Of a stretch of 64,000 bases of DNA, positions 2,431 to 6,921 are shown piece by piece. The DNA is from Escherichia coli (GTDB lineage: Bacteria > Pseudomonadota > Gammaproteobacteria > Enterobacterales > Enterobacteriaceae), in assembly GCF_051903065.1 (NCBI RefSeq), contig NZ_CP178438.1; one strand, given 5' to 3'. Both the position numbers and the translations under genes were made by a program. Positions within the stretch are counted from its first letter, which is position 1. Each line of letters begins with the position of its first letter. The notes beneath the pieces are model-generated. The model saw only the letters and a list, made by a program, of their open reading frames with translations, was not told the DNA's origin and ran no database searches.

Positions 2431-3240
2431 TCACCCCTGCAATATTTTGTCCATCACGCGCCCCGGCAGCAGGCGCTTAAGCACCATTACTGCCCAGGTC
2501 ACCAGCGTTACCGGATAGCGCATCTTCGGCTTCTCGCTAATAAAAGCATGGCGTACTTTGTCCACCACCGCTTCCGGTCCCAACGTAAAGCGGGCGGCGA
2601 TGCCGGGATTTTCGACTGGTTTATCACTTTGCGTCTGGTTGACGTTGTCGGTGAAGCGAGTACGAATGGGACCGGGTTCGATCAGGCTGACTTTAATTCC
2701 GCTGTGGCGTAGCTCCATGCGCAGCGCGTCTGACCACGCCTCCAGCGCATATTTACTGGCCGCGTAAGCGCCACGACCCGGCGTGGAGATTAATCCCATC
2801 ACCGATGATGTCATCACAATACGCCCTTCACCGTGCGGTAACATCGCGGGTAACAGGCGCATGGTGAGCTGGTGTGCGCCGAAAAAGTTGGCGGAAAACT
2901 GCTGTTCCATCTGCGCACGGCTGATGGTGGAAAGGGGGCCATACATGCCGAATCCGGCATTGTTAAAGATCCCATACAGACAATTATCGGTCAGGGCGAT
3001 CACCTCGTCGGCTGCGCGATCAACACTTTCTGGTGAATCCAGATCGATCAACACGCCGGTAAATCCCATGCTGTTCATGCGCTCAACATCATCCGGTTTC
3101 CGGCAACCTGCCAGCACATGAAAACCCTGGCGTTTTAATTCGAGCGCGCTTTCCAGGCCAATTCCACTGGAACATCCGGTAATTAAGACCGATTTTTGCA
3201 TAACTTTACCTGTCAGGATCTCCGTTGCTTTATGAGTCAT
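2431..3240 (-). CDS. ybbO: Short-chain dehydrogenase/reductase YbbO
   Basis: 269-aa ORF with Rossmann motif TGCSSGIG and SDR catalytic YxxxK (YAASK). Confidence 0.9.
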   Translation of the reverse strand: MTHKATEILTGKVMQKSVLITGCSSGIGLESALELKRQGFHVLAGCRKPDDVERMNSMGFTGVLIDLDSPESVDRAADEVIALTDNCLYGIFNNAGFGMYGPLSTISRAQMEQQFSANFFGAHQLTMRLLPAMLPHGEGRIVMTSSVMGLISTPGRGAYAASKYALEAWSDALRMELRHSGIKVSLIEPGPIRTRFTDNVNQTQSDKPVENPGIAARFTLGPEAVVDKVRHAFISEKPKMRYPVTLVTWAVMVLKRLLPGRVMDKILQG

Positions 3241-3856
3241 GATTTACTAAAGGCTGCAACTGCTTCGCCATCCAGTCGGCAATAAACGGCTGGGCGTCGC
3301 GGTTGGGATGAATACCGTCATCCTGCATCCATTGTGGCTTGAGGTAGACCTCTTCCATAAAAAAGGGCAGCAGCGGAACATCAAACTCTTTGGCGAGTTT
3401 GGGGTAAATGGCGCTAAAGGCTTCATTATAACGGCGACCATAGTTTGCAGGCAGACGTATTTGCATTAACAATGGTTCAGCGTTGGCGGCTTTGACATCC
3501 TGCAAAATCTGGCGCAGCGTTTGCTCGGTTTGCTGTGGCTGAAAACCACGCAAACCGTCATTGCCGCCCAGTTCAACCAGCACCCAGCGCGGCTGATGCT
3601 GTTTCAGCAGAGCCGGAAGGCGCGCCAGCCCTTGTTGCGAGGTGTCGCCGCTGATGCTGGCATTAACTACCGACGTTTTACTCTGCCACTTATCATTCAA
3701 CAAGGCAGGCCAGGCCGCGCTGGCAGACATTCGATACCCGGCGCTCAGGCTATCACCCAGAATCAATAACGTGTCCGCTGCGGCGGCACGGAAGGTTAAC
3801 AGGACCAGGAACAGGAAGGGCAAATGCCAGCGGAAAACATTGTTGAAGTTCATCAT
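3230..3856 (-). CDS. tesA: Acyl-CoA thioesterase I / lysophospholipase L1 (SGNH hydrolase)
   Basis: GDSLSAG SGNH motif after a signal peptide; start taken at MMNFNN (208 aa) rather than the track start at 3886. Confidence 0.9.
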   Translation of the reverse strand: MMNFNNVFRWHLPFLFLVLLTFRAAAADTLLILGDSLSAGYRMSASAAWPALLNDKWQSKTSVVNASISGDTSQQGLARLPALLKQHQPRWVLVELGGNDGLRGFQPQQTEQTLRQILQDVKAANAEPLLMQIRLPANYGRRYNEAFSAIYPKLAKEFDVPLLPFFMEEVYLKPQWMQDDGIHPNRDAQPFIADWMAKQLQPLVNHDS

Positions 3857-4510
3857 CTTAAGAAGTCCGTCGGTCAGGGGGAGCATGAACTCTCCATCCT
3901 CACCGGAGTTGAGCTGGTTGTCAAACGTGGCGAGACCATCGCGCTGGTGGGCGAGTCGGGATCGGGTAAGTCAACCTTGCTGGCGATCCTCGCCGGGCTG
4001 GATGACGGCAGCAGTGGCGAAGTGAGTCTGGTGGGACAACCGCTACATAATATGGACGAAGAAGCGCGGGCAAAGTTGCGCGCGAAGCACGTCGGCTTTG
4101 TTTTTCAGTCATTTATGCTAATTCCTACCCTTAACGCGCTGGAAAACGTCGAGCTTCCGGCGCTGCTGCGCGGTGAGAGTAGCGCGGAAAGTCGTAACGG
4201 AGCGAAAGCGTTGCTCGAACAGTTAGGGCTGGGTAAACGTCTGGATCATCTTCCGGCACAGCTTTCCGGCGGTGAACAGCAACGAGTGGCGCTGGCACGA
4301 GCCTTTAACGGTCGACCTGATGTGCTGTTTGCCGACGAACCCACCGGCAACCTTGACCGCCAGACCGGCGATAAAATTGCCGACCTGCTGTTTTCCCTCA
4401 ACCGTGAGCATGGCACCACGTTGATTATGGTGACCCACGACCTGCAACTGGCGGCACGCTGCGACCGCTGCTTACGGCTGGTGAACGGGCAGTTGCAGGA
4501 GGAAGCATGA
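3824..4510 (+). CDS. ybbA: ABC transporter ATP-binding protein YbbA
   Basis: 228-aa ORF; Walker A GESGSGKST, signature LSGGEQQR; stop overlaps ybbP start. Confidence 0.9.
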   Translation: MPAENIVEVHHLKKSVGQGEHELSILTGVELVVKRGETIALVGESGSGKSTLLAILAGLDDGSSGEVSLVGQPLHNMDEEARAKLRAKHVGFVFQSFMLIPTLNALENVELPALLRGESSAESRNGAKALLEQLGLGKRLDHLPAQLSGGEQQRVALARAFNGRPDVLFADEPTGNLDRQTGDKIADLLFSLNREHGTTLIMVTHDLQLAARCDRCLRLVNGQLQEEA

Positions 4511-6921
4511 TTGCACGCTGGTTCTGGCGCGAATGGCGTTCGCCGTCGCTATTAATTGTCTGGCTGGCGCTAAGCCTGGCGGTGGCCTGCGTGCTGGCGC
4601 TGGGCAATATCAGCGATCGCATGGAGAAGGGCTTAAGCCAACAAAGCCGGGAGTTTATGGCGGGCGATCGGGCGTTGCGCAGTTCGCGCGAAGTGCCGCA
4701 AGCATGGCTGGAGGAAGCGCAAAAGCGCGGCCTGAAAGTCGGCAAGCAGCTGACTTTCGCCACCATGACATTTGCAGGCGACACACCGCAGCTGGCGAAC
4801 GTTAAAGCGGTGGATGATATCTACCCGATGTATGGCGATCTGCAAACCAATCCCCCTGGCCTGAAACCGCAGGCGGGCAGCGTATTGCTGGCCCCACGCC
4901 TGATGGCACTGCTTAACCTGAAAACGGGCGACACCATTGACGTGGGCGATGCCACTTTGCGGATTGCCGGAGAAGTGATTCAGGAACCGGATTCCGGTTT
5001 TAACCCCTTCCAGATGGCTCCGCGTCTGATGATGAATCTGGCGGATGTCGATAAAACCGGAGCCGTGCAGCCGGGGAGTCGGGTCACCTGGCGCTATAAA
5101 TTCGGCGGCAGCGAGAACCAGCTCGACAGCTATGAGAAATGGTTGTTACCTCAGCTTAAACCCGAACAACGCTGGTACGGTCTGGAACAGGACGAAGGCG
5201 CGCTGGGGCGATCGATGGAACGCTCGCAACAGTTCCTGCTGCTTTCGGCGCTTCTGACCTTGCTGCTGGCAGTGGCAGCAGTGGCGGTAGCGATGAATCA
5301 TTACTGTCGCAGTCGCTACGATCTGGTGGCGATCCTCAAAACGCTGGGGGCAGGGCGAGCGCAACTGCGTAAGCTAATCGTCGGTCAGTGGTTGATGGTG
5401 CTGACGCTTTCAGCCGTTACCGGTGGGGCGATAGGCCTGTTGTTCGAAAACGTGTTGATGGTGCTGCTCAAGCCCGTTCTGCCTGCTGCACTACCGCCAG
5501 CCAGCCTCTGGCCATGGCTATGGGCGCTGGGCACCATGACGGTCATCTCGCTGCTGGTGGGGCTACGACCATACCGCTTGTTGCTGGCAACGCAGCCTTT
5601 ACGCGTATTACGTAATGATGTGGTAGCGAACGTCTGGCCGCTGAAGTTTTATCTGCCGATTGTCAGTGTGGTGGTTGTGCTGCTGCTCGCCGGATTAATG
5701 GGTGGCAGTATGCTGCTCTGGGCGGTGCTGGCGGGCGCGGTAGTACTGGCTTTGCTGTGCGGTGTGCTGGGCTGGATGCTGCTGAATGTACTTCGCCGCA
5801 TGACGCTGAAATCGCTGCCTCTGCGCCTGGCGGTTAGCCGCCTGTTACGTCAGCCATGGTCAACGTTAAGCCAGCTTTCGGCATTTTCGCTCTCCTTTAT
5901 GCTGCTGGCACTGCTGCTGGTGTTGCGTGGCGATCTGCTCGACCGCTGGCAGCAGCAGCTACCTCCAGAAAGCCCGAACTACTTTTTAATTAACATCGCC
6001 ACAGAACAGGTAGCACCGCTAAAAGCGTTCCTCGCGGAACATCAGATAGTCCCGGAATCGTTTTATCCGGTGGTGCGGGCGAGACTGACGGCGATTAACG
6101 GCAAGCCGACAGAAGGCAATGAAGATGAGGCGCTCAATCGCGAACTCAATCTTACCTGGCAAAATACGCGGCCCGATCATAATCCGATTGTCGCCGGTAA
6201 CTGGCCGCCAAAAGCCGATGAAGTGTCGATGGAAGAGGGGCTGGCGAAACGCTTAAACGTTGCCCTCGGTGATACCGTGACTTTTATGGGCGATACCCAG
6301 GAGTTCCGCGCTAAAGTGACCAGCCTGCGCAAAGTGGACTGGGAAAGTCTGCGGCCTAATTTCTATTTTATTTTCCCTGAAGGGGCATTAGACGGGCAAC
6401 CGCAGAGCTGGCTTACCAGTTTCCGCTGGGAGAATGGCAACGGCATGTTGACGCAACTCAACCGCCAGTTCCCTACCATTAGCCTGTTAGACATTGGCGC
6501 GATTTTAAAACAGGTCGGTCAGGTGCTGGAGCAGGTAAGTCGGGCGCTGGAGGTGATGGTGGTGCTGGTCACCGCCTGCGGTATGTTGCTGTTGCTGGCA
6601 CAGGTGCAGGTGGGAATGCGTCAGCGTCATCAGGAGCTGGTGGTGTGGCGCACACTCGGTGCGGGGAAAAAACTGCTGCGTACCACGTTGTGGTGTGAGT
6701 TCGCCATGCTTGGGTTTGTTTCCGGCCTGGTGGCCGCAATTGGTGCGGAAACGGCACTGGCAGTGTTGCAGGCGAAAGTGTTTGATTTTCCGTGGGAGCC
6801 AGACTGGCGATTGTGGATTGTTCTGCCGTGCAGCGGTGCGCTGCTGCTGTCGCTTTTCGGCAGCTGGCTGGGTGCGCGACTGGTTAAGGGTAAGGCGCTG
6901 TTCAGGCAGTTTGCGGGGTGA
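4507..6921 (+). CDS. ybbP: ABC transporter permease YbbP (FtsX/MacB-like)
   Basis: 804-aa ORF with duplicated multi-TM permease halves; coupled to ybbA. Confidence 0.9.
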   Translation: MIARWFWREWRSPSLLIVWLALSLAVACVLALGNISDRMEKGLSQQSREFMAGDRALRSSREVPQAWLEEAQKRGLKVGKQLTFATMTFAGDTPQLANVKAVDDIYPMYGDLQTNPPGLKPQAGSVLLAPRLMALLNLKTGDTIDVGDATLRIAGEVIQEPDSGFNPFQMAPRLMMNLADVDKTGAVQPGSRVTWRYKFGGSENQLDSYEKWLLPQLKPEQRWYGLEQDEGALGRSMERSQQFLLLSALLTLLLAVAAVAVAMNHYCRSRYDLVAILKTLGAGRAQLRKLIVGQWLMVLTLSAVTGGAIGLLFENVLMVLLKPVLPAALPPASLWPWLWALGTMTVISLLVGLRPYRLLLATQPLRVLRNDVVANVWPLKFYLPIVSVVVVLLLAGLMGGSMLLWAVLAGAVVLALLCGVLGWMLLNVLRRMTLKSLPLRLAVSRLLRQPWSTLSQLSAFSLSFMLLALLLVLRGDLLDRWQQQLPPESPNYFLINIATEQVAPLKAFLAEHQIVPESFYPVVRARLTAINGKPTEGNEDEALNRELNLTWQNTRPDHNPIVAGNWPPKADEVSMEEGLAKRLNVALGDTVTFMGDTQEFRAKVTSLRKVDWESLRPNFYFIFPEGALDGQPQSWLTSFRWENGNGMLTQLNRQFPTISLLDIGAILKQVGQVLEQVSRALEVMVVLVTACGMLLLLAQVQVGMRQRHQELVVWRTLGAGKKLLRTTLWCEFAMLGFVSGLVAAIGAETALAVLQAKVFDFPWEPDWRLWIVLPCSGALLLSLFGSWLGARLVKGKALFRQFAG

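Follow-up and report, generated by a model that had tools for sequence, protein, structure and literature searches.

In the window analysed here, i.e. a stretch of 64,000 nucleotides of Escherichia coli DNA (contig NZ_CP178438.1), the genes tesA and ybbA are divergent with their 5' ends facing each other, ybbA running on the plus strand from 3824 and tesA on the minus strand from 3856 or 3853. The tesA coding sequence (3230..3856) yields 208 residues from the ATG at 3856 and 207 from the ATG at 3853. The ybbA coding sequence (3824..4510) encodes a protein of 228 residues, the ATPase subunit of the YbbAP type VII ABC transporter. Each is flanked by a gene of its own orientation: ybbO (2431..3240, minus strand) lies downstream of tesA and overlaps its 3' end by 11 bp (3230-3240), while the start of ybbP (4507..6921, plus strand), encoding the permease partner, overlaps the ybbA stop by 4 bp (4507-4510, ATGA). 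All four genes are given by the ORF list and by the annotations of K-12 and O145 genomes, and they are joined without any intergenic DNA. Across 3200-4550 the sequence shows 100% identity to O145 genomes of E. coli, and of the 5426 complete E. coli genomes 5418 contain this region; over the 100 bp spanning the overlap (3806-3905), the K-12 MG1655 sequence is identical to that of the window.

From the sequence and the ORF list, the doubly coding stretch is 33 bp long (3824-3856) if tesA begins at the ATG at 3856, and 30 bp long (3824-3853) if it begins at the ATG at 3853. The K-12 MG1655 reference annotation, with tesA at 519139..519765 (minus) and ybbA at 519733..520419 (plus), has the 33-bp overlap. 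PGAP, when annotating the identical O145 genome, starts tesA from the second ATG, which gives 30 bp. The initial annotation had spoken of at least 33 bp. The head-to-head overlap itself is borne out by the ORFs and by both annotations, but the defensible range is 30–33 bp and the words "at least" have to be dropped. Within 3824..3856, ybbA codons 1-11 are antisense, codon by codon, to tesA codons 11-1. This register, read directly from the sequence, is exact: the ybbA ATG is the reverse complement of the CAT codon for TesA His11, and the TesA Met2 and Met1 codons are the reverse complement of the CAT CAT codons for YbbA His10 and His11.

YbbA carries a nucleotide-binding domain with a Walker A motif, is homologous to LolD (E = 1e-54) and MacB, and matches residues 15-242 of the YbbA chain in PDB 9GE6/7/8 without a difference along its 228 residues. 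The ATPase domains of LolD, MacB and other proteins of solved structure align already from YbbA residues 5-9, so that the ybbA start cannot be shifted downstream. The ATG at 3824 is also the first start codon past the upstream stop in this frame, according to the ORF list. On both grounds the plus-strand start at 3824 that had initially been assigned to ybbA is retained. It is preceded by the Shine-Dalgarno sequence AGGAAGGG (3813..3820, plus strand, read from the sequence), located within the TesA signal-peptide codons Pro13-Phe14-Leu15, of which AGGAAGGG is the reverse complement. Its AGGAA core is conserved in nearly all Enterobacterales loci. Conversely, the conserved PFL in the hydrophobic core of TesA is the complement of this Shine-Dalgarno sequence, a complementarity that may explain the conserved PFLFL of enterobacterial TesA signal peptides.

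TesA is a periplasmic GDSL esterase with an N-terminal signal peptide, whose homologues carry PF13472/PF00657. In an alignment of 30 sequences the residues of the SGNH/GDSL blocks are invariant (G33 D34 S35, G69, N98 and D179/H182). The leader, as read from the sequence, shows a basic n-region, a hydrophobic core and an AxA-type cleavage site, in the order MMNFNNVFR-WHLPFLFLVLLTF-RAAAA and then DTLL. The mature protein begins ADTLL, the leader cleavage position being known from earlier biochemical work. Because the signal peptide is cleaved, N-terminal proteomics, one of the checks suggested in the initial annotation, cannot locate the TesA start. The periplasmic location of TesA is stated in a recent article (PLoS Biol 2025, PMC12646458), which reports that TesA binds YbbAP on the periplasmic domains of YbbP. 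A search for direct mapping of the TesA initiation codon found none, and the supplements of the tetracycline ribosome-profiling study of Nakahigashi 2016 contain no entry for tesA or ybbA.

As there is no intergenic DNA, the control region of each operon sits within the partner gene. For tesA, the entry retrieved from supplementary file 2 of Kim et al. 2012 gives a minus-strand transcription start site (TSS) at NC_000913.2 position 519021, with 45 reads and a 32-nt 5' UTR. The 51-mer of this entry matches window positions 3938-3888 exactly, placing the TSS at 3888. Read relative to this mapped TSS, the tesA promoter (3896..3924, minus strand) lies in ybbA codons 25-34 and consists of a -35 element TTGACA (3924-3919), a 17-nt spacer and a -10 element GAGGAT (3901-3896), separated from the TSS by 7 nt. 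The -35 element lies opposite the codons GTT GTC AAA for YbbA Val-Val-Lys. Among 18 Enterobacterales compared, TTGACA is conserved in 15 and the -10 pattern nAnnAT in every one. The promoter was identified solely via the published TSS: a sigma-70 consensus scan over 3400-4300 returned no promoter, and it missed that of tesA because the -10 element matches the consensus at only 3 of 6 positions.

The plus-strand TSSs of ybbA are all weak, and their positions disagree between the two data sets from which entries were retrieved. Kim et al. 2012 list one at 3669 (K-12 518802, 2 reads, 155-nt UTR) and another at 3437 (2 reads), whereas Cappable-seq gives 3482 (K-12 518615) and 3255 (518388), with scores of 1.5-2.5; all are inside tesA and antisense to it. 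The excerpt of the Cappable-seq plus-strand list used here has no TSS between 518615 and the ybbA start, and in the study of Mendoza-Vargas 2009 the ybbA primer yielded no product. The mapping of TSSs proposed in the initial annotation could thus be made on published maps, and in the entries retrieved the tesA TSS (3888) falls inside ybbA and the ybbA TSSs (3669, 3482, 3437, 3255) fall inside tesA. The accompanying statement that each promoter lies inside the 5' coding region of the other gene is sustained as far as the location within the partner is concerned, with the tesA promoter in ybbA codons 25-34. It is too narrow in confining them to the 5' part, as the retrieved ybbA starts are 155-569 nt into tesA, at -155, -342, -387 and -569. 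On the same entries the two promoter sets face each other, tesA being transcribed leftward from 3888 and ybbA rightward from 3669 or further left; reckoned from the tesA TSS to the nearest ybbA TSS, the transcripts can pair with each other along ~220 nt or more.

To what extent the shared bases are constrained was assessed in an alignment of ybbA from the window and 17 other Enterobacterales species (n=18), the loci having been fetched with a TesA profile. Entropy at third codon positions amounts to 0.38 bits for the overlap (codons 2-11), 0.97 bits in the part corresponding to the tesA 5' UTR (codons 12-21), 0.87 bits over the tesA promoter (codons 22-35) and 1.33 bits in the remainder of the gene (codons 36-224). 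When the whole of ybbA is scanned in 10-codon windows, the nine of lowest entropy all begin between codons 1 and 9, followed by windows over codons 24-34, where the tesA promoter lies. When only codons for conserved residues are considered, the difference between the overlap and the rest of ybbA is retained (Mann-Whitney p = 7e-4). Low synonymous variation in codons 1-11 could partly reflect a constraint from translation initiation or from the tesA ribosome-binding region rather than from TesA coding. All 17 loci with a 30-33-bp overlap have a His at one or both of YbbA positions 10/11 (HH, HR or QH), versus 5 of the 61 other loci. These histidines are the imprint of the tesA ATG codons. On the TesA side, the n-region MNF(N/K)xVFRWH shows an invariance that is unusual for a signal peptide, as judged from the N-termini of 120 homologues. 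The expectation that the overlap constrains the N-terminal codons of both genes is borne out by the low synonymous-site entropy and by the mirrored His and Met codons. Within the species, polymorphism is strikingly low about the overlap and the tesA promoter: identity of at least 99% over 3806-3905 (100 bp) is found in 5416 of 5417 E. coli genomes, and over a control stretch of ybbA located 200 nt downstream (4006-4105) in 4797 of 5418.

Public models of TesA differ in its start: some have 194/197 residues (TTG start, no overlap), others 204-208 (tandem ATGs) or 218-220 (long ORF), and a few fused models of 286-347 residues extend far into the antisense of ybbA. The tandem ATGs at 3856-3854 (Met1) and 3853-3851 (Met2, the PGAP start) were compared with the N-termini of 120 homologues. 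Both are present in most genera, Met2 alone is retained in Salmonella, Erwinia and Superficieibacter, and Met1 alone in Photorhabdus. We take 3856 and/or 3853 as the TesA start. A start at the in-frame TTG at 3821..3823 (minus strand, Leu12), next to the ybbA ATG, would make the overlap an annotation artefact, the two coding sequences merely abutting. It is the start taken in many automated calls (the 194/197-residue models, including K. pneumoniae KPN_00472, 594 nt), being the way in which some gene callers get round the overlap, and the protein would still begin with a hydrophobic 16-residue peptide, MPFLFLVLLTFRAAAA. This codon is nevertheless not conserved, the position being TGG, TAC, ATC or TTC in other Enterobacterales, whereas an upstream ATG is always present. 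The shortened leader would also lose its basic n-region, Arg9 being the sole basic residue there. Moreover, the sharp rise in synonymous entropy along ybbA falls between codons 11 and 12, at the position of the tesA ATGs, and not at codon 1, and YbbA His10/11 follow the tesA ATGs. We rejected the TTG at 3823 and consider it very improbable that tesA begins there.

The longer ORF, with an ATG at 3884..3886 (minus strand), would give a TesA of 218 residues and an overlap of 63 bp, and had been mentioned in the initial annotation as the alternative to 3856. No start codon precedes this ATG in the ORF; it has GGAGAG upstream at a good spacing and agrees with some public TesA models of 218 residues. 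However, the TSS mapped at 3888 is only 2 nt away, so that the mRNA would have a 2-nt leader and the GGAG would be absent from it. The codon is not conserved either: its equivalent is CTG in Citrobacter, TTG in Yersinia, ATT/GTG in Photorhabdus and ACC in Rahnella, with GTT also among other genera, and in Rahnella a TAG directly before ATGATG closes the frame toward it. The third-position entropy of 0.97 bits in ybbA codons 12-21, far above that of the overlap, likewise speaks against TesA coding in this part. A start at 3886 was rejected as well, and its chances appear, if anything, slighter still than those of the TTG. Of the two positions first considered, 3856 (or 3853) is thus supported by conservation, and 3886 is dismissed on the TSS and on its lack of conservation. 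The further possibility raised at the outset, that the true starts lie downstream and the ORFs do not overlap, is contradicted by the beginning of the YbbA domain at residues 5-9 and by the non-conservation of the TTG at 3823. Taken together, the comparative evidence and the published TSSs favour true initiation codons at the ATG at 3824 and the ATG at 3856/3853, which would share coding bases.

A search with the TesA profile, limited to a single genome for each species, gave 80 loci, most of them gammaproteobacterial and one from a Massilia. A complete ybbA hit was obtained at 78 of these, and in every case ybbA lies next to tesA in divergent orientation. In Candidatus Pantoea persica (locus L019) ybbA is degraded to fragments with in-frame stops and no Walker A, and tesA is matched only partly, a state consistent with gene decay in a symbiont. 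Start calls were made for 77 loci, leaving out this degraded ybbA and two loci (L028 and L045) for which the rule gave no tesA start. TesA was taken to start at the most downstream ATG with a plausible leader, and YbbA at the most downstream ATG at least 37 codons ahead of the Walker A glycine; outside Enterobacterales these calls are a simple, uncurated heuristic. On this basis, 43 of the 77 junctions, almost all of them gammaproteobacterial, are overlaps, 23 have a gap of 0-30 nt and 11 a larger one, and the two starts are less than 30 nt apart in 66 loci. The larger gaps occur in Aeromonas, Marinobacter, Halomonas, Salinicola and others. A tight tesA/ybbA junction is judged not to be obligatory because these 11 loci have real gaps.

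The 30/33-bp geometry is found without any indel in 16 Enterobacterales loci. In Pectobacterium zantedeschiae (L012, ~2950-3050), the TesA leader has a 16-codon insertion, the usual ybbA ATG is lost and an ATG 15 codons upstream is used, with an overlap of 51-78 nt. Outside Enterobacterales, the two ATGs most commonly overlap by 2 nt within a shared palindrome, CATG. This was confirmed by eye in at least 19 loci, usually with GGA/GAGG well spaced upstream of the tesA ATG, and occurs in Vibrionaceae, Psychromonas, Rheinheimera, Marinobacterium, Nitrincola, Cycloclasticus and Dokdonella (among loci L020-L075; e.g. 2952-2955 in L020 and 3024-3027 in L054). No mention of a shared CATG start palindrome was found in the articles consulted. 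In Pseudomonas the junction is a 10-nt gap, or again CATG if a slightly longer TesA leader is assumed. The TesA leader measures 32-34 residues up to the GDS glycine in enterobacteria versus 24-27 elsewhere. A shift of the TesA start is likely for the Enterobacterales: the two starts would originally have shared CATG or been a few nt apart, and that of TesA would then have been displaced upstream by ~8-10 codons, into ybbA. The idea that the TTG at 3823 is a relic of an ancestral CATG-type start was rejected because the Vibrio-type and enterobacterial junctions differ in relative reading phase (distance modulo 3 of 2 versus 1).

We thus hold with considerable confidence that tesA/ybbA is a genuine and evolutionarily maintained head-to-head overlap of two protein-coding genes. 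The overlap is not a new phenomenon, as it is annotated in the reference genome and already published: the K-12 genes tesA (b0494) and ybbA (b0495), which encode components of the YbbAP-TesA complex, represent the same locus with no difference at the sequence level, and PMC12646458 notes that the tesA-ybbO operon partly overlaps ybbA-ybbP and that similar arrangements exist in other Gram-negative bacteria. That study treats the locus without analysis of start codons, promoters or conservation of the overlap. The present analysis adds the dismissal of the two other candidate tesA starts, positions for the promoters, support for dual constraint from the comparison of species, and the widespread zero-spacer junction.

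Several known systems bear on what such an arrangement could do. Co-directional coupling overlaps (ATGA/TGATG), exemplified at this very locus by ybbA/ybbP (4 bp) and tesA/ybbO (11 bp), are likewise compact junctions that share coding bases. They permit a hand-over of ribosomes, whereas the head-to-head overlap of tesA and ybbA cannot couple translation, and in E. coli the head-to-head type is ~300 times rarer (2 versus 586 pairs). In coliphages 186 and lambda, face-to-face (convergent) promoter pairs are under transcriptional interference and form switches whose interference has been measured. The likeness would be that polymerases from tesA and ybbA must pass or collide over at least ~220 bp; the phage pairs differ in having measured interference, the strengths of the tesA and ybbA promoters being known as read counts only (45 versus 2). 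Closest are the divergent excludons. In ExcludonFinder (NAR 2025, PMC12288877), tesA-ybbA is one of the 16 divergent excludons that occur in half or more of 58 MG1655 transcriptomes, a subset of the excludons having been validated by p19 pull-down. Overlapping 5' transcripts, which define this class of divergent neighbours, are indeed found for tesA-ybbA both in the published TSSs and in the MG1655 excludome, with at least ~220 nt complementary. Typical divergent excludons overlap through their 5' UTRs across an intergenic region, by ~95 nt on average, and here it is the coding sequences that overlap. The excludon model also predicts mutually exclusive expression, which is awkward for TesA and YbbAP as two parts of one complex.

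If the arrangement has a regulatory role, it might act through interference or antisense pairing. The first 10-11 residues of YbbA and of TesA are both encoded in the same 30-33 bp, the TesA part belonging to the signal peptide, and polymerases leaving the two promoter sets travel toward each other. In such a scheme the much stronger tesA promoter (45 versus 2 reads) could damp ybbAP, and perhaps the reverse also, by way of the face-to-face promoters and antisense pairing. Such damping would fix the ratio of the soluble esterase TesA to its membrane transporter partner YbbAP. In its full form, this model takes the near-absent tesA-ybbA spacer as a selected regulatory device, present as CATG in many Gammaproteobacteria and as a 30-33-bp dual-coding segment in Enterobacterales, in which buried face-to-face promoters and at least ~220 nt of antisense pairing would set or switch the TesA:YbbAP ratio. 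We consider this full form unlikely. Alternatively, the overlap may be real and functionally neutral, having arisen by drift of start codons in a compact locus, with a conservation that reflects only the cost of altering doubly coding bases. An overlap would be self-stabilising once formed, the real gaps in 11 of 77 loci mean that a tight junction is not required, and we found no regulatory data specific to this locus. Against neutrality, near-zero spacing persists in differing forms (the 30-33-bp overlap, the sharing of CATG and the 10-nt gap of Pseudomonas), the products TesA and YbbAP form one complex, and overlap of the antisense transcripts is present in most transcriptomes. The chance that the overlap is neutral seems to us somewhat short of even, and on the functional question as such we regard the neutral reading and the regulatory model as about as likely as each other.

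The shared bases have practical consequences. Gene callers that bar opposite-strand overlaps truncate the TesA signal peptide, as in the 194/197-residue models. Any engineering of tesA at its 5' end, leader or promoter alters YbbA residues 1-34 at the same time, and vice versa; tesA is often targeted in strains built for fatty-acid production. A start-to-stop deletion of tesA or ybbA takes out the start or promoter of the partner, and phenotypes of single-gene knockouts at this locus may therefore be double effects.

Divergent coding overlap is the rarest class of bacterial gene overlap: in the counts of Huvet & Stumpf 2014, 586 adjacent overlapping pairs of E. coli are co-oriented, 75 are convergent and 2 are divergent, i.e. 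2 of 663. In the present case the partners belong to one lipid-processing complex. The tesA/ybbA pair represents a small and clean case of dual-coding constraint, with its His/Met mirror and its suppressed synonymous change. Should the regulatory model prove true, this locus of E. coli would be a divergent excludon that acts on the subunits of one complex and not on antagonistic functions.
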